DNA of 64,000 nt from a virus (lineage: Duplodnaviria > Heunggongvirae > Uroviricota > Caudoviricetes). Where the stretch lies: the IMG/VR virus record IMGVR_UViG_2703718815_000003. One strand, written 5' to 3'. Shown here piece after piece: positions 4,303 to 49,434 of this stretch. Position 1 is the first letter of the stretch. Each line of letters begins with the position of its first letter. Under the pieces are notes generated by a model. That model saw nothing but the letters and a program-made list of their open reading frames with translations, did no database searches and had not been told where the DNA came from. The translations under genes were made by a program, and so were the position numbers.

Positions 4303-4974
4303 CTAATCATACTTGGAGGTATTTATCACCAGAATTTTGTTTGTATAAATCTTCTTAATATCCCATGTGACATTACCGGAATACCATTGACCGTTATATA
4401 CTTGGTTTCCAGTTGCACCTGTCATTGTTACATAGACAGGTCTGTCGTAATCGGTTCGTCTATAGTTATATACTCCAACCATAGCAGGCATTACCGCACA
4501 TGGATACCCCATATCTATTGTAAATTGAGGGTCAGAAATAGTGATAAGTTTCGCATCAAGGGGCATCATCTCACCGTGATACACCATTGCGCCTGCGCTG
4601 TTATACATGGCAATGCCATAGCCAGAATGTGGTAACACCATATCAGAAAAAGCATAAACTGTTATTGTTCCGGGGCTACCATTTACCTGATGCAATCTGA
4701 GAGCATTGTATCCGTTACTATGCTCATGAATAAACATCATGTTCGCCTTATTACTGCTTTTTATGAAAAAAAAACATGATTTGTTTGATGGGATTGATGT
4801 TTGAAAAACAGAACCTTTAGATGTAGACATTGTCCCTTTATTAATCAGATTTTGCGGAGTAAATTCTGGACTCATCCACAAACTTCCATCTGATTGAGTA
4901 ATTGACATCCCGAACATAATTATCCCCAGTATGTGTATATGTAAGAACCAAGCCCCGTATATAAATTTGACCAA
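4303..4974 (-). CDS. hypothetical protein (AT-rich gene; start uncertain, may begin at internal Met at 4917)
   Basis: 223-aa ORF, low GC, overlaps upstream ORF by 55 nt in another frame. Confidence 0.3.
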   Translation of the reverse strand: MVKFIYGAWFLHIHILGIIMFGMSITQSDGSLWMSPEFTPQNLINKGTMSTSKGSVFQTSIPSNKSCFFFIKSSNKANMMFIHEHSNGYNALRLHQVNGSPGTITVYAFSDMVLPHSGYGIAMYNSAGAMVYHGEMMPLDAKLITISDPQFTIDMGYPCAVMPAMVGVYNYRRTDYDRPVYVTMTGATGNQVYNGQWYSGNVTWDIKKIYTNKILVINTSKYD

Positions 4975-42451: not shown

Positions 42452-42838
42452 ATGTCTGATAACAAGATTGAATTTATAGAAAGTCGCTACGCTGCTTTTA
42501 TCGCAGGGTTGATTGAATCCTCACCTATGAGCCAGGCCCAGATAGCCAAAACAATTGGGTATAAAAACGCCAACAACCTTTCTTTAATTAAAAGCGGCAA
42601 AATTCCTTTGCCTATCGATAAGGTTCGTCCGCTGGCGCTGGCACTGGGCATTGAGCCAAGTCGTCTTATGATGATGGTGCTGGAAGAACGCCAACCCGAA
42701 CTCGCAGCATTTTTATACAAAGAAGGCACTGCTCCTCTTAACGAGGACGAAAAACAGGTTCTTGCTGCATATAACGAGCGATTCGGTAAAGAGAAAGGCG
42801 CATCACAAAAGGTTGTTGAGGCCATAAAGTCTCTATGA
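42452..42838 (+). CDS. XRE-family helix-turn-helix transcriptional regulator
   Basis: HTH SQAQIAKTIGYKNANNLSLIKSGK; plus-strand gene convergent with recombinase. Confidence 0.65.
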   Translation: MSDNKIEFIESRYAAFIAGLIESSPMSQAQIAKTIGYKNANNLSLIKSGKIPLPIDKVRPLALALGIEPSRLMMMVLEERQPELAAFLYKEGTAPLNEDEKQVLAAYNERFGKEKGASQKVVEAIKSL

Positions 42839-43936
42839 AAAATTTACACGAATAAGCTCTGTTGATAGACGATCTCCCTTAAATTTGTGGTCAATTTCGT
42901 CTAAATCCGGTTGCTCTACGATTGATGCGATGTACGTCGAGAAACTTTCTAAGGCGTCTCGCATCTCGTCCATATAATCGTGACGGTCGTAGACCCGATC
43001 TATCCCCTCAAGACTGTGGTTCATGATTTTACGTGATACCTCCTGGCTTATGCCTAATGCTGGGAAGTAACTACGCGCAGTACGGCGCAAATCTCGGGGT
43101 GTAAATGGCTCAAGCTCCATCAGTTCTGGTCGTTCCAGAATACGACGTAATGCCTGGGCTATTGCCACTTTAGACATAGGAAGGTCTTTCCCGATTTTTT
43201 TATTCGAAGGCACGAGCCACTGGCTGTCTTTACCATATTCGAACAACTCTTCAATACAAGTGCGCATTAATGAGCTTAAAGGCAGAGAATGCTCACGGGC
43301 AGATTTGTTCCTCTTGCCTTGATTCCAAACCCCACGCTTAAGATTGAACTCACTTTTTTTAGCCCGCAGTACTTCGTCAGGTCGTCTTGCTGATACAAGA
43401 CACAGTCTGGCCGCCCATTTTGTACCAGCGCACACATTGAAGTAGTCCCATATATTCCAGAACACCCATACCTCTGCGTCAGTCAGCTTCCGCTCGCGGG
43501 GCGTGGGCTTTGCGCCACCGGCAACTTTGTTAAGTGACATATCGTTTAACGGTGACACGTCTATCATCCCCTGGAAGGCGCACCAGCTAAGGAACTGCTT
43601 CATCAGAGAGAAAACGCGGCGGCCCATAACAATTTTGCCATCCAGTATTAGTGGGTTGACCAGTTGGTTCACCATGAACCTATTAATATCACTTACTTTT
43701 ACATCGGCAATGTGCGGCAAAACATGTATCAAAATACAATGAACAGCGATCTCTGGCCGACGTCTGGTTATCAGCAGAGATAAGCGAGTGAATAACATGA
43801 ATGCGTCCGAGAATCTCATGTCATTGCTAACCTGGGAGATCATAACGGCCTGCATTTGAGATGCTCTTTCGAGATACTCAATCGCCTCTTTTGAGGTGTT
43901 CTCCGCAGCGCGTGCTCTGTCAAAGCTATTTTTCAT
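42833..43936 (-). CDS. tyrosine recombinase / integrase
   Basis: C-terminal catalytic region with ...RRPDEV..., TPRDLRRTARSY and HSLEGIDRVYDRHDY (R-K-H-R-H-Y-type arrangement). Confidence 0.75.
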   Translation of the reverse strand: MKNSFDRARAAENTSKEAIEYLERASQMQAVMISQVSNDMRFSDAFMLFTRLSLLITRRRPEIAVHCILIHVLPHIADVKVSDINRFMVNQLVNPLILDGKIVMGRRVFSLMKQFLSWCAFQGMIDVSPLNDMSLNKVAGGAKPTPRERKLTDAEVWVFWNIWDYFNVCAGTKWAARLCLVSARRPDEVLRAKKSEFNLKRGVWNQGKRNKSAREHSLPLSSLMRTCIEELFEYGKDSQWLVPSNKKIGKDLPMSKVAIAQALRRILERPELMELEPFTPRDLRRTARSYFPALGISQEVSRKIMNHSLEGIDRVYDRHDYMDEMRDALESFSTYIASIVEQPDLDEIDHKFKGDRLSTELIRVNFS

Positions 43937-44032
43937 ATGACAATCACCGAGTTACGCCGATGTACTGTATAAGTAAACAGTATATTAGGCATAGATTCTT
44001 ATAGGATCAAGAGTAAAAGTAACTCATTTTTA

Positions 44033-44071
44033 CTAATGATTCCATACATAGTAGGTATGGAATCATTTAGA
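44033..44071. promoter_or_regulatory. palindromic operator-like site upstream of recombinase gene
   Basis: AATGATTCCATAC-ATAGTAG-GTATGGAATCATT perfect 13-bp inverted repeat. Confidence 0.5.
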
Positions 44072-44148
44072 CGTCGTTTTTTAAATTTTAAGGTAAACAG
44101 GAGTGAGTTTGGTGGGGAATAAAAAACGGCTCCTGTGAGCCGTTAAAA

Positions 44149-44397
44149 TCAGAGGGTGCTGACGTATGCAGCCAGTTCTGTGTATCCGCCAATCGGCTGG
44201 CCATCGATCAGCACCTGGGGGATAGTCTCTACCGGTTTATCAACAATTTCACTTAGTTTTTCCTTGTCGATACCGGCAGTGGTGATGTCGATGTACTCAT
44301 AATCACCGTAGCCATGTCCCTTTAGTTGCTTCGCCAGCTCAACCGCACGTTTGCAGTATGAGCAGTTATCTCGTCCGTAGATAACGACTTTCATCAC
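44149..44397 (-). CDS. glutaredoxin
   Basis: 82 aa; CSYC active site, TIPQVLIDGQPIGGYTEL glutathione-site motif. Confidence 0.8.
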   Translation of the reverse strand: MMKVVIYGRDNCSYCKRAVELAKQLKGHGYGDYEYIDITTAGIDKEKLSEIVDKPVETIPQVLIDGQPIGGYTELAAYVSTL

Positions 44398-44668
44398 TTC
44401 ACCTCGTGCAACTGCTGTTCATTAACGATGATTGTGTCAATTTCGTAGCCGTGGATGCGTGGCTTTGGCTTCACTGCCTGACGAGCTGCGCGACGCGCCT
44501 GTTTACGTTTGTTTCCCATATAGAGTCCTTTCAAGTGAGTAAGTGTCGTGACTATAGCTAAAATGAATAGGTGAGTCATTACCTATTTAATGTGTTTGGT
44601 TACTAAGCAGAAATGGCTTTGTGAGGTTGACACATTAGAAACGGCAAGACAGCTTTAAACTAGCTGAA

Positions 44669-45790
44669 ATGGTATGGTCGATTAGGTATCATTCAGTTTC
44701 AAAATTAACCAAAGACACTGATAAAATGCCTGTTTTGTTAATCCTCATACTTGGGACAGTGATGATTATTTTCTGGGATACCGTCAAGGAAAACGTAGAG
44801 GTCATAGGTACACTTGCCACTTCACTTGCATTTTTCGCCACAGCATGGGCCGCTTACGAGGCAAGGCATAGTGCAAAGGCAGCAATGAGGGCCACTAGGC
44901 TGACGGCAGCTTCACTCCTTGAAATGAAAAAAGCCTCTTTTAAGGAATGGTACGGCATATTACTTGAACAGCATAATAGATTACTTGAGGATGTTAACAA
45001 GACCTTGCAGGATGATAGGGAACTTAATGCAAAACTGGGAACGAATCTCATCAAGGCTATTTATTACCATGTAACCAAAAACTCCGTTTACATTAAATAT
45101 ATTAACCACATAGTTTTAATTCTTGATTATTTAGATAAAGACTTCTATTCGCCGTCATCAGCCGATTATGAAAAGAGAGCTTACATAGAACAGCTGCGCA
45201 ACAGCATTAGTCCTAATGTAAGCCTGCTGATAGCTACATTCGGCCTTAATATTGACACTAATAAAACCTATGACGCAAAGAGGCTTTACAGCCTGCTAAG
45301 CAAGTATAACTTCTTCGAAGGCCAACTTTTTTTTGAAGAAGCAATATCGAAAGTTCATTATTTGGACTCTTATGCTGCTGTGATATTTGATAACGAATAC
45401 CGAAAAGATGTAGAGTTTTATGTTGAAGAAATGGTTCGAGGTCGTGAGACCCCTAAAATCGATTCAAGATATCGTCATTTAAGGGCTACGTTCGCAATTC
45501 TGTGGTCTTACAACAACCCCTGCCGACAACATTTGCTTCAAAGATTTAATGACCTACCTATGCATATGCGAAACAGCATTGAGCTGAGGATGGAAAATGC
45601 AGCCGATAAAGTAGCTGAGTTCAACTCTTTGTTACTTGGTTTTATAGGCTGGGAGCTTAGAATCGCAGGTAATAAAGTGAGGGTGATCAAGGATGAAAAA
45701 CATTTAAAGAGGCTAATAAAACTCAACGATAAGTATCCTATTCCCCCCCCGAGAGAAAGGTATTCTGTTAACCAATGGTTTCACCAATAG
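44669..45790 (+). CDS. membrane-anchored hypothetical protein (plus-strand moron; 3' end may be frameshifted at a C8 tract)
   Basis: 373-aa ORF, N-terminal hydrophobic helices; C8 run at 45743..45750; +1 frame stays open to 45957. Confidence 0.45.
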   Translation: MVWSIRYHSVSKLTKDTDKMPVLLILILGTVMIIFWDTVKENVEVIGTLATSLAFFATAWAAYEARHSAKAAMRATRLTAASLLEMKKASFKEWYGILLEQHNRLLEDVNKTLQDDRELNAKLGTNLIKAIYYHVTKNSVYIKYINHIVLILDYLDKDFYSPSSADYEKRAYIEQLRNSISPNVSLLIATFGLNIDTNKTYDAKRLYSLLSKYNFFEGQLFFEEAISKVHYLDSYAAVIFDNEYRKDVEFYVEEMVRGRETPKIDSRYRHLRATFAILWSYNNPCRQHLLQRFNDLPMHMRNSIELRMENAADKVAEFNSLLLGFIGWELRIAGNKVRVIKDEKHLKRLIKLNDKYPIPPPRERYSVNQWFHQ

Positions 45791-45961
45791 ATTCGCTGAT
45801 GAGATTAAAAATAGTCTGTCTATGTATAAGTTAGAAAATGCCTATTTAGCACTCAACTCTAATCAACACAAAGAAAAGGTGATTGATGAAATTGTTGTTG
45901 AAGTTGAGAAAATTGTCGATAAATTTAAAGCAGAACTTGATTCTTTGGATTTCAACTAAGC

Positions 45962-45990
45962 AAAAAGGGGCCGAAGCCCCTTTAATTATT
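45962..45990. terminator. bidirectional intrinsic terminator
   Basis: aggggc-cgaa-gcccct hairpin with TTAATTATTT on plus strand and TTTTT on minus strand. Confidence 0.65.
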
Positions 45991-46069
45991 TGCGCTGAAA
46001 AAAGTGTTGCTAGGATGTTAGCAAGCTATGGTTAAGAACGTCTGCCGCAATTGTCTATCACAGCGTTGA

Positions 46070-46135
46070 GCGGTCTGGTTTATGTTAGCGGAGTCTTAAT
46101 CTGGGTGATTAAAAGGCCAAACCGCTCAACGCTGT
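46070..46135. repeat. perfect 16-bp inverted repeat (long stem-loop) downstream of tRNA cluster
   Basis: cacagcgttgagcggt ... accgctcaacgctgtg with a ~34-nt loop. Confidence 0.6.
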
Positions 46136-46138
46136 GTC

Positions 46139-46225
46139 TGGCGGAGAGTAATGGAATCGAACCATCATCGCTTGCGCAATGGGACGGTTTTCAAGACCGC
46201 TTGAGCACCATGCTCCCTACTCTCC
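46139..46225 (-). tRNA. tRNA-Ser (anticodon UGA), CCA encoded
   Basis: manual fold: acceptor GGAGAGT/ACTCTCC, anticodon loop CTTGAAA, long variable arm, T-loop TTCGATT. Confidence 0.75.
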
Positions 46226-46438
46226 AGTTGTTGTGGTGCCGGGGGCTTCCCGGTGTCCTTTGGCTGGTTATCCACCGTGGACGGAGCCAATAGTCATCAC
46301 AAAGGATCAATATAACCATTTCCCCGCGTGCGCTTAGCCGCATTCACCACAACGAAAAGAGCACTGTATGACGTTTGCACGGACTTACGCTTAAAACAGG
46401 GCAGTCTCGGCGGTTCTCAATGCTCTTTCCTGTTGTGT

Positions 46439-46514
46439 TGGTGCCGGTTAACGGATTCGAACCGCCGACCATTCGCTTACAAGGCGACTGCTCTACCAAC
46501 TGAGCTAAACCGGC
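46439..46514 (-). tRNA. tRNA-Thr (anticodon UGU), CCA encoded
   Basis: manual fold: acceptor GCCGGTT/AACCGGC, D-arm GCTCAGTTGGTAGAGC, anticodon loop CTTGTAA, T-loop TTCGAAT. Confidence 0.75.
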
Positions 46515-46518
46515 AATT

Positions 46519-46605
46519 TGGTGGGGAGTGATGGAGTCGAACCACCCGAGTCGCAATGACAGTAGATTTACAGTCTACACCGCTACCTCTACGGACTAAC
46601 TCCCC
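46519..46605 (-). tRNA. tRNA-Tyr (anticodon GUA), CCA encoded
   Basis: manual fold: acceptor GGGGAGT/ACTCCCC, anticodon stem GTAGA/TCTAC with loop CTGTAAA, long variable arm. Confidence 0.75.
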
Positions 46606-46610
46606 TAAAT

Positions 46611-46685
46611 TGGCGATGGTGGGTGGATTCGAACCACCGACCAGTTGGTTAACAGCCAACTGCTCTACCGCTGAGCTACACCATC
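46611..46685 (-). tRNA. tRNA-Asn (anticodon GUU), CCA encoded
   Basis: manual fold: acceptor GATGGTG/CACCATC, anticodon stem GTTGG/CCAAC with loop CTGTTAA, T-loop TTCGAAT. Confidence 0.75.
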
Positions 46686-47463
46686 AATTCGGCACTGCCA
46701 GTATTTATTACTCAACAGTGCCAATCGCGACGGTTTAGTTTCTGCCAGGAAACGCACCGCTACTTGCACTTTTCGTTAGTGCCAGACGCTTTCGACTTCG
46801 CTCAATAGTAGAAGGCAAAATCTTTAAGTAGATGATGTTTCTGAGGACAGCACCTACTTTGTAATTTATACAATGTGATGTATGGAATCATTTGTTGTGA
46901 AAACAGGCACCAATGGCAACAGTGGTTAAACCTACACAACAATCCTGTCTTCACAACGTTGAGGCCACTACTCCGATTGAATGTTTGCCCAACATGTTAC
47001 ATATCAACGCTCGCCGGTATCTCTGTGAATAGAACCTTAGAATTGATAAAAATGTAATGGCCTCAACGTTGTGTGCTGGCTAACCATACCAGCCGGGCTA
47101 CGTCGCCGCTTTTTAACCCAGTATAAACGACATAATTGAACAAAATGACGTAACAGGATGGGCGGTCAGAGGCTAAGAATCCGGGAGTCATATGGAGTTG
47201 AAAATATACCGACCGCCCATTCTGTTACTTCATCGGAGGGAACACTCATGTTCCCTCCTGCGTTCTGCAATCACACTCGCTCAGTGTGTCCCATTTCGGT
47301 AACGAGGCTGGAAACTGACCTCGCTGGTGTTTGGCTTATTAGGCTACTGCCAGATAGACTTCTTCGTTTGCACTTGTATTTAAGTTCAAACAGTCGCGTC
47401 TCAACGAAAACAAAGTCATCTTATACATAAAAGATAAGTAAGTAAATACTTATTATTGTGTTT

Positions 47464-47754
47464 TTATTCGGTTGTGACTTTTTTGATCAAGGCCACTCTA
47501 CGACTAGGTGTTCTTGTGATGGTGGCAGTGAATCGTTTCGCTTGGATAGTAATGGTTTCGTTCTCCTTAAGTTGCCCGTAGCGAGTTTCCACCAGGGTGC
47601 CAAGACGCCACAGACCATCATCGATACGTTTATGACTAGCAAATTTAATCAGCAACAGTTTTACGACTAACTGACCTACGTAAAAGGCGAATGCGACTCC
47701 GGCCGCTAAGCAATAGGTGGCCAACCACCAGTCCCAAGAAGTTAAATTGCTCAT
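47464..47754 (-). CDS. small membrane protein
   Basis: 96-aa ORF with N-terminal hydrophobic helix. Confidence 0.35.
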   Translation of the reverse strand: MSNLTSWDWWLATYCLAAGVAFAFYVGQLVVKLLLIKFASHKRIDDGLWRLGTLVETRYGQLKENETITIQAKRFTATITRTPSRRVALIKKVTTE

Positions 47755-47899
47755 TTTCTAACCTTTGTTTCATGAACTACCCGATACACACGCTTTCCGA
47801 TGCACAGTGTTTTGGTTTTAAGTTCCTGCTTAATTAAATCACGACAGATGCCGAAGCCGATAAGGAAGCCACCCATAAAAGCTAATGAGATGTATGGAA

Positions 47900-48115
47900 T
47901 CATTTTAACGCTCCTGATTCTACTAATTGCTGTAGCAATAATTTCCCTTTATCAGTTAACTGGTAGTTGGCCGAGCACCACGTTTCAGAAACGTTTGCAA
48001 CCAACCCTAAACGCTCTAACTTAGCTCGCGTTTTAGGCTTCCAGTACTCAGGGAACTCCGGCCACTTACTGATTTCATGAAGCGTTTCTTTCTCCCTTTT
48101 ACTTAATACGATCAT
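47900..48115 (-). CDS. hypothetical protein
   Basis: 71-aa ORF overlapping ligase gene end by 4 nt. Confidence 0.3.
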   Translation of the reverse strand: MIVLSKREKETLHEISKWPEFPEYWKPKTRAKLERLGLVANVSETWCSANYQLTDKGKLLLQQLVESGALK

Positions 48116-49434
48116 TCTTTATCTCCGATTCGATCTTCGGTATCGCGTAAGCAACGCGGCCATTTCAGTCGTGGGTGGCGTAAGCTGCCATCAGGTGTTT
48201 TCTCGTGACAATGAACCTCGACAATACGACCACGGTACTTCTCTTTGTTGTTCCAGATCTCGTCCAGATATTTATGCTTAATGCCACTCGCACGAACGAT
48301 GACGCCGTTTTCAAGACGAATAACAATTTTTCCAAGCGTGTTGGCAAAACCAGAGTCCGGGTCGCCCGGCTCAAAATCGATAATTTCACCATCTTCTGAA
48401 TCTTCGTCTTTTAACTTCCACCAGCTGCGGGTACGTTTAAACTCGTAAACAGAGTTCGGATCTTTGCCCATCTCCCCTTCTTCGTTATCGTCCAGGCGTT
48501 TCATGAAGCGTTCGATGAAGTCTTCGTGGCTATGGATGATGTAGAACGGATGTAGGTGAATGTCTTGCGCGTAGTCTTCACTGCGATCGTTTTTGAACAA
48601 CGCCACGAGAATAGCCAGGCGCTCTTTCAGCTTCATACCTGTCTTTGCATACTCTTTGGATTTAGCCTGTGCCCGCCATTCCGGTAGGAAGAAGTCGAAA
48701 ACATGATAAATAGCGCCAATTGCCTGCACGTTCTTTTTGCGCAATGCAGATACGGACTGGTTAAATGAACCGGCTGTTCCTTCACCATCGAAGAAGATGT
48801 GTTTGTGGCCTGAAAGTTTGCCTAATTCGAGCATGGCTGGCTTTAGGTGATCGAGAGACGTGATTGGATTACCAGTACGAGAAAGGAAGTTCACCTCTTC
48901 CTCGTCAACAATAACCTCGCAAATTACTCGCAAACCATCGAGCTTAAGGCTGCCAATCATCGGCCATTTTGCTTTAGGATTTGGCTTGAAGGGGTATTTG
49001 TCGCCTTTTTCTTTATACGGTGACGCCAGCTGCACCTCAAATTTCGGAATGGGATTTTCAAAAACCTTGTTGCATAGGCTAATCCCAACACCCGCTTTCG
49101 GGTCTTTTAAGAGGAAACGACGGAACACGTCCTGCCCATCGGCGCACATTGACGCCACGATAGACTCAACAGCAGCTATTGCTGCGTTCCCCGTCAGCTC
49201 GCGAGAGGCCAGCTTATTCAGTATATCAATGGCTTTTTCGTCACTTGGGACGGACTCACTAAGCGGCTCTGCCACTTTGTATTTCTTTACCCCAAAACGG
49301 ATGAAAGGGTTGAGCATCAATGAAACCATGCTTTGCTCGAAGTCATCCATGTTGGCCAATGCCTCTTTTTTTGCATTGGTTCCCATAGCTTTCATTTCGT
49401 CCAGCTTATGCTTAAGTGCGATCAACTTTTTCAT
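48112..49434 (-). CDS. ATP-dependent DNA ligase
   Basis: nucleotidyltransferase motif I KLDGLR, later FFDGEGTAG, EGEMGKD and WWKLK motifs. Confidence 0.7.
   Translation of the reverse strand: MKKLIALKHKLDEMKAMGTNAKKEALANMDDFEQSMVSLMLNPFIRFGVKKYKVAEPLSESVPSDEKAIDILNKLASRELTGNAAIAAVESIVASMCADGQDVFRRFLLKDPKAGVGISLCNKVFENPIPKFEVQLASPYKEKGDKYPFKPNPKAKWPMIGSLKLDGLRVICEVIVDEEEVNFLSRTGNPITSLDHLKPAMLELGKLSGHKHIFFDGEGTAGSFNQSVSALRKKNVQAIGAIYHVFDFFLPEWRAQAKSKEYAKTGMKLKERLAILVALFKNDRSEDYAQDIHLHPFYIIHSHEDFIERFMKRLDDNEEGEMGKDPNSVYEFKRTRSWWKLKDEDSEDGEIIDFEPGDPDSGFANTLGKIVIRLENGVIVRASGIKHKYLDEIWNNKEKYRGRIVEVHCHEKTPDGSLRHPRLKWPRCLRDTEDRIGDKE

Follow-up and report, generated by a model that had tools for sequence, protein, structure and literature searches.

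Sequence comparison shows that positions 44726..45959 of the analyzed DNA, a stretch of 64,000 nucleotides that we refer to as the window, form one gene of an SSU5-like phage-plasmid, which encodes a membrane-anchored protein of the putAbiC branch. In the window copy, slippage within a run of eight C residues would have shifted the reading frame and likely left a null allele, and the tract is a hot spot for such changes. The features on which this reading is based are listed in Table 1.

Table 1. Features of the split gene and its surroundings in the window
Feature	Coordinates	Strand	Remarks
Integrase	42833..43936	-
GrxA glutaredoxin	44149..44397	-
phoH remnant	44394..44579	-	Short, N-terminal
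Promoter-like site CTGAAA-17-TATCAT	44664..44692	+	Consensus scan, 9/12 matches, weak
In-frame upstream ATG with 19 additional codons (MVWSIRYHSVSKLTKDTDK)	44669..44725	+	First ATG of the mechanical ORF
Truncated ORF	ATG 44669 to TAG 45788-45790	+	373 aa
Whole gene, split by one extra C in the window	44726..45959	+	410 codons in the C7 state
Hydrophobic helix 1 (PVLLILILGTVMIIFW)	44729..44776	+	Predicted membrane anchor; residues 2-17; Kyte-Doolittle 19-residue mean up to 2.25
Helix 2, hydrophobic or amphipathic (VIGTLATSLAFFATAWAAY)	44801..44857	+	Residues 26-44; hydropathy 1.44
putAbiC (PF16872)-equivalent region	45080..45322	+	Residues 119-199; no alignment offset to residues 119-199 of P0065
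C8 homopolymer, frameshift site	45743..45750	+	Reads ATT CCC CCC C(+C)GA; in-frame state is C7
13 aberrant residues (PRERYSVNQWFHQ) and early TAG in the C8 allele	45749..45790	+	Translation
Displaced C-terminal coding segment	45750..45959	+	69 codons, REKGILLTNG...DSLDFN; TAA 45957-45959; now in the +1 frame
45-aa ORF inside the displaced segment	45822..45959	+	Listed in databases as separate protein WP_158003936.1
GC-rich hairpin terminator	45964..45983		Between the abortive-infection-like gene (+) and the tRNA cluster (-); terminator scan
Four tRNA genes	46139..46685	-
DNA ligase	48112..49434	-

Reading frames around the C tract

The initial annotation had described an AT-rich plus-strand moron, oriented against the prevailing strand, whose ORF stops at 45790 shortly after the C8 run. 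All of these coordinates hold, with the premature stop of the 373-aa ORF coming 38 nt past the run. The strand and composition of the gene were also as described: nearly all large ORFs near it lie on the minus strand, and its GC content is 39.4% (29.6% for positions 45791-45959) versus 45.6% for the window. Apart from the C8 tract, no C or G run in the 64-kb window reaches 7 nt. About 0.55 C runs of 8 or more are expected per window by base composition, and the C8 run by itself is thus not improbable. Elsewhere, an A9 run at 4766..4774 is the sole homopolymer of at least 9 nt in the window.

From the C tract onward, the +1 frame contains no stop for 69 codons, up to the TAA at 45957-45959, and only 0.19% of shuffles of the downstream segment were free of stops. 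Deletion of one C yields a protein of 429 aa from ATG 44669, or of 410 aa from ATG 44726, ending ...KIVDKFKAELDSLDFN. This repaired product reaches 56 residues beyond the 373-aa ORF, in good agreement with the extension of about 55 residues that had been proposed. The bidirectional terminator that had been noticed just behind the stop of this frame could be reproduced as well, as the hairpin folds on both strands (-15.0 kcal/mol on the plus strand and -13.5 kcal/mol on the minus strand) and has T-rich tails on both. At the other end of the gene, the promoter-like site is a weak indication that transcripts would start upstream of ATG 44726. The gene is a self-contained accessory gene on the opposite strand, with grxA and phoH on one side, the tRNA cluster on the other, and its own terminator.

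Homologues of the split gene

Comparison with relatives leaves little doubt that the 373-aa ORF and the downstream frame are one disrupted gene. In 11 related plasmids, annotation shows one ORF of 395-429 aa at this locus, with an end equivalent to 45959. For four plasmids at 99.9% identity, the matched span is one base shorter than in the window, and one of these, CP099286, carries TT-C7 in a gene otherwise identical to that of the window. L001 and the IMG/VR contigs L021 and L022 have C7, one ORF, and 0 SNPs relative to the window gene. The claim that the C tract splits a longer gene is thereby confirmed, since these C7 relatives contain a single ORF of 410-429 aa. Alleles from Enterobacter, Salmonella, Klebsiella, and other E. 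coli strains are single-frame and lack a C tract, coding for the same loop by mixed codons such as GAC CCT CGA or AAC GCC CGA.

At the protein level, the repaired product matches phrog_18168 with an E value of 1e-173 (579 bits; residues 13-410 on profile positions 1-406 of 408). This is the family that holds the gene, and PHROGs gives it no annotation, so no function follows from the match. A protein search returned 71 homologues, a few of them partial and most full length at 394-445 aa. In an alignment of 29 homologues, the C-terminal 60 residues were conserved, with Y367, L369, Y373, I386, and F409 nearly invariant, and the hhalign alignment to distant relatives extends to residue 425 of 429, inside the displaced segment. 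Because homologues are single-frame and have a conserved C terminus, we regard the open +1 frame as the ancestral coding frame. A search of homologues for a fused gene had been suggested at the outset, and both the identical-gene relatives and the distant homologues indeed encode one frame. The opposite pattern, with homologues sharing the early stop and no conservation beyond it, was not observed: the downstream frame is conserved, and homologues do not stop at that point.

No copy of the gene was found in INPHARED phage records by tblastn, and copies of the phrog_18168 family were found in records filed as plasmids. Megablast against the phage collection matched the flanks and not the gene. 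A metagenome scan for the sequence context of the tract gave no matches, and the gene goes unmentioned in papers on SSU5 phage-plasmids.

Tract length among isolates

Several tract lengths were present among the isolates. The gene is in frame with TT-C7 (L001, L003, L021, and L022) and with TTT-C6 (L002). It is shifted by +1 with TT-C8 (the window/L013; L014 from run SRR13972114; and L017 from GCA_029870855.1) and with T-C9 (L015, ERR4784719), and by -1 with T-C7 (L012, CP164373, and L016, SRR30896213) and with TT-C6 (L019, ERR9793810). The tract is the only difference in the gene between the window (C8) and L001 (C7), and the C8 alleles of L014 and L017 lie 3 SNPs from the window gene. Since the window/L001 group contains an otherwise identical C8/C7 pair and C8 is found again at a distance of 3 SNPs, this group requires a minimum of two events; the T-C7 and T-C9 alleles require two further events, and TT-C6 requires one more. 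By this reading of the alignment, at least four or five tract-length changes, in both directions, have occurred among the 14 sampled sequences, with the caveat for the recurrence of C8 that L014 is identical to L017 and L012 nearly identical to L016, such that each pair may be one isolate. Each pair apparently represents one isolate assembled twice, and the tract state agrees within each pair.

Two gene haplotypes, separated by about 15 SNPs, can be distinguished among the sequences, and both include out-of-frame tract alleles. Only two other indels were seen in the 1.3-kb gene, both confined to the already broken L012 and L016. One is a change from C4 to C3 at 45450 (45450..45453) in L012 and L016, and the other is a change from T8 to T7 at 45327 (45327..45334) in L012 only. 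Length changes in both directions and in several assemblies mark the tract as a real indel hot spot. The pattern is in keeping with a genuine slippage hot spot at which some copies continue to decay, and not with one assembler's mistake.

All close copies in PLSDB and among RefSeq complete plasmids are in frame, and OFF alleles are therefore a minority. Out-of-frame alleles were present on at least 9 contigs versus 82 contigs for the listed in-frame variants. The 45-aa remnant ORF (WP_158003936.1) occurs on 9 contigs, and the exact truncated 354-aa protein is deposited at NCBI from two assemblies (KYU61524.1 and MCJ2619837.1; WP_062873810.1). The tract itself is confined to one E. coli sublineage, being interrupted in L002 (TTT-C6) and absent from the Enterobacter, Salmonella, Klebsiella, and other E. 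coli alleles.

Start codon and predicted structure of the protein

The 19-codon extension from the upstream ATG is missing from most family members, and the MPxLLILI start is kept down to 39% identity. No Shine-Dalgarno sequence precedes either ATG (44669 or 44726). We dropped ATG 44669 as the true start, given that family conservation favors the MP..LLILI start, and ATG 44726 is the likely start codon on this basis.

The N terminus contains one strong and one weaker hydrophobic segment, which bears out the earlier description of the product as a membrane protein. Helices 1 and 2 correspond to helices 19-34 and 43-64 (429-aa numbering) in the AlphaFold model of P0001, a protein 99% identical to the window protein (mean pLDDT of 81 and pTM of 0.72). 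Directly after helix 2 comes the best-conserved motif of the family, ATAWAAYEARxSAKAAM, in which alignment columns T39, A40, W41, A43, E45, A46, and R47 are invariant. The segment behind the tract is modeled as two short strands and two long helices, with pLDDT values of 89-96. The predicted architecture is thus a mainly helical soluble domain tethered to the membrane by an N-terminal anchor. Searched against PDB sequences, the family profile yielded nothing under an E value of 0.05, and comparison of the fold of the helical domain with PDB and BFVD gave no informative match.

Genomic context

By sequence identity, the window belongs to the SSU5-like phage-plasmids of E. coli. Contig LOIP01000054.1 (assembly GCA_001607335.1) shares 100% identity with the window over window positions 43400-47900, and the flanks have matches in hundreds of plasmids of Escherichia, Klebsiella, Enterobacter, and Salmonella that are non-mobilizable and about 110 kb long.

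The neighborhood of the gene varies among relatives. The equivalent of the phoH remnant in relatives is marked by PGAP as an incomplete pseudogene. Relatives from Enterobacter, Salmonella, and Klebsiella have a full phoH of 774 nt, and some add a Gp49-family gene between grxA and the AbiC-like gene. In other SSU5-like phage-plasmids of about 110 kb, the same slot (around 20-25 kb into the record) holds family alleles that are only 30-38% identical; such divergent alleles came from E. coli, E. albertii, Klebsiella, and Citrobacter. Judged by these sequences, the slot of the AbiC-like gene appears to be a hot spot of diversification, which would suit a defense or exclusion gene. In some Enterobacter hormaechei plasmids, the IS3-like element ISSen4 is inserted in or beside the locus, which shows as two-piece matches; ISSen4 insertion is a further route of disruption at the same slot.

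On the tRNA side, the spacer between tRNA-Ser and tRNA-Thr (46203..46371, minus strand) matches the whole Rfam model of the STnc100 sRNA below threshold (41.3 bits versus a gathering cutoff of 47; E value of 6.6e-7). PGAP annotates a 133-nt "tRNA-OTHER" in L002 (3551..3683) and L003 (3542..3674), corresponding to about 46382..46514 of the window, a site occupied there by an ordinary tRNA-Thr of 76 nt. ARAGORN called no tRNA at this site in L002, and the 133-nt feature may be a disrupted or insert-bearing tRNA.

Relationship to abortive-infection proteins

The window protein itself gave no usable match against Pfam, NCBIfam, or PADLOC, and putAbiC was not detected in it or in P0001 even at an E value of ≤1. 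A profile search of 1.84 billion representatives recovered only 95 relatives. The homologue P0065 (39% identical; E value of 4.6e-79 to the query) matches putAbiC with 25.9 bits at residues 119-199, above the Pfam cutoff of 22, and relatives found at E values of 5e-40 to 1e-30 reach 32-45 bits. The putAbiC model matched 53 of the 59 remote relatives; the PADLOC AbiC model matched 8 of the 59 (best E value of 1.3e-6), and the AbiP model matched 5 (best E value of 1e-4). When the close family was aligned to the remote relatives with hhalign, the probability was 100%, with an E value of 1.2e-44 over 387 columns. Such relatives are named "putative phage abortive infection protein" by NCBI.

The AbiC link of the window protein is thus transitive, running from sequence to sequence via intermediates. 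Profile evidence places the gene as a distant relative in a small enterobacterial putAbiC branch, similar to lactococcal AbiC and AbiP. By analogy with these proteins, an anti-phage role, through abortive infection or exclusion, appears about as probable as a different function. An exclusion or abortive-infection phenotype had been suggested earlier from the sequence, and the putAbiC link agrees with it. A literature search for the term "putAbiC" did not find it in any paper.

In a 2026 review, the lactococcal proteins AbiC and AbiP are placed together as "AbiC/P" proteins, anchored in the membrane with two and one TM helices, respectively (PMC13064643). AbiC reduces production of the major capsid protein by a mechanism that is not known; AbiP, for which the major tail protein is the trigger, binds RNA and ssDNA nonspecifically; and both lack a fold-based mechanism (PMC13064643). 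The window gene resembles them in being a single-gene accessory determinant on a mobile element, in combining an N-terminal anchor of one or two predicted helices with a soluble domain that is mainly helical, and in the lack of an informative fold match, which has also been reported for AbiC and AbiP. It differs in residing in a Gram-negative phage-plasmid host, in its greater length (410 aa, versus about 344 aa for AbiC), in the conserved two-helix extension at its C terminus, and in scoring below Pfam and PADLOC thresholds. Compared by description, it is also the same kind of element-borne, membrane-anchored single-protein moron as PdpSau of Staphylococcus aureus Sa2 prophages, an AbiP-like protein that causes abortive infection of lytic phages (PMC10127798). 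However, PdpSau combines a single TM helix with an OB-like domain, and its anti-Kayvirus function has been shown experimentally, whereas a role of the window protein is suggested by its relatives.

Origin and significance of the C8 allele

Three origins had been offered for the C8 run, namely, sequencing error, phase variation, and programmed frameshifting. There is good reason to regard C8 as genuine in the window record. The extra C could be a sequencing or assembly error in a plasmid that really carries C7 and an intact gene, given that homopolymers are classic error sites, that the otherwise identical genes of L001, L021, and L022 carry C7, and that every close copy in the curated complete-plasmid sets is in frame. 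Moreover, the T8-to-T7 change in L012, a complete-plasmid record, is absent from the near-identical L016 and resembles a homopolymer error. Nevertheless, we consider such an error unlikely, since an identical truncated protein comes from two NCBI assemblies and the contig is present in two samples, C8 is also found 3 SNPs away both in an NCBI assembly and in an independent assembly of SRR13972114, and three more out-of-frame lengths are present in other sequencing runs. It is improbable that a majority-consensus error at an 8-base run would be repeated over unrelated data sets.

Whether the tract is a selected contingency locus, with reversible high-frequency on/off switching of an Abi-like gene that trades protection for cost, appears doubtful. 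Length changes in both directions on several backgrounds (the at least four or five events among 14 sequences), the window and L001 differing at the tract alone, and the cost that defense genes often carry would all suit such a locus. Tract-driven phase variation of phage defense also has a precedent in pglX of the Streptomyces coelicolor Pgl (BREX-like) system, in which a G tract changes length to turn the gene off or on, at measured rates of 1e-2 to 1e-4 (PMC4365076). Both cases involve a G/C homopolymer within a defense gene (a putative one here), with expansions and contractions seen in isolates. In contrast to pglX, however, the C tract is restricted to one E. coli sublineage, with mixed codons for the loop elsewhere, and it is interrupted in L002. 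Furthermore, one OFF allele carries a second frameshift, which suggests loss over switching, and C7-C8 is short for a mismatch-repair-proficient host: E. coli mismatch repair makes such runs far less mutable than they are in classical phase-variable species.

Programmed recoding would make C8 itself functional, with a +1 slip on CCC_C or transcriptional slippage giving 354-aa and 410-aa products. The motif CCC-C is known to be prone to shifting, tRNA-Pro slipping by +1 on CCC CCC C would restore the exact C7 protein sequence, the downstream frame is open, and the C8 frame encodes a PPP stall motif. We nevertheless rejected programmed frameshifting as highly improbable, because the shift site and the two-frame arrangement are not conserved among homologues: the nearest relatives and all distant homologues are single-frame. 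The minus-one alleles T-C7 and TT-C6 are beyond rescue by a +1 slip, no stimulatory element was seen on reading the sequence, and the ancestral coding frame fully explains the open frame. An explanation at the RNA level was also set aside, as Rfam returned only tRNAs, the subthreshold sRNA outside the gene, and a chance match on the terminator hairpin. Thus, error alone is an unlikely origin and programmed frameshifting finds no support. Phase variation comes closest of the three, but in a weak sense, as a natural indel hot spot with in-frame and out-of-frame alleles. The more specific proposal, that the poly-C run is a working on/off switch of a costly AbiC/P-like gene on a phage-plasmid, with a C8 state that is possibly leaky via CCC_C, strikes us as quite improbable. 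The sequence of the C8 allele is such that slight leakiness by a +1 slip on CCC_C may occur.

The reading that we prefer is a slippage frameshift in a single gene, and it can be outlined as follows. A C7 run would have arisen in one E. coli lineage from the codons ATT CCC CCC CGA, and in the window copy this run gained one C, presumably through replication slippage. Translation of the C8 allele would lose the frame past residue 341, add 13 wrong residues, and stop. The conserved last 69 residues, predicted to form two strands and two helices of the domain, would thereby be lost, and the allele is most likely null (OFF). From an intact copy, the protein would reside in the inner membrane during plasmid-state lysogeny; infection by another phage might then activate it and block phage development at some cost to the cell, as for AbiC and AbiP. 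By this analogy, we consider the gene a candidate abortive-infection moron of SSU5-like phage-plasmids, with the window copy most likely being an OFF allele.

These findings do not overturn current understanding, as they describe an ordinary homopolymer frameshift in a divergent AbiC/P-like gene. Annotation should treat the 354-aa WP_062873810.1 and the 45-aa WP_158003936.1 as pieces of one gene, i.e., as a frameshifted allele. The window and CP099286 make up a natural ON/OFF pair one base apart that is suited to a clean phenotype test. If the tract did act as a switch, it would represent mobile-element-encoded, phase-variable phage defense in a mismatch-repair-proficient enterobacterium. More generally, our data indicate an uncharacterized enterobacterial AbiC/AbiP branch in a fixed accessory slot of SSU5-like phage-plasmids, and the family is a testable candidate for phage defense or superinfection exclusion in clinically common plasmids.
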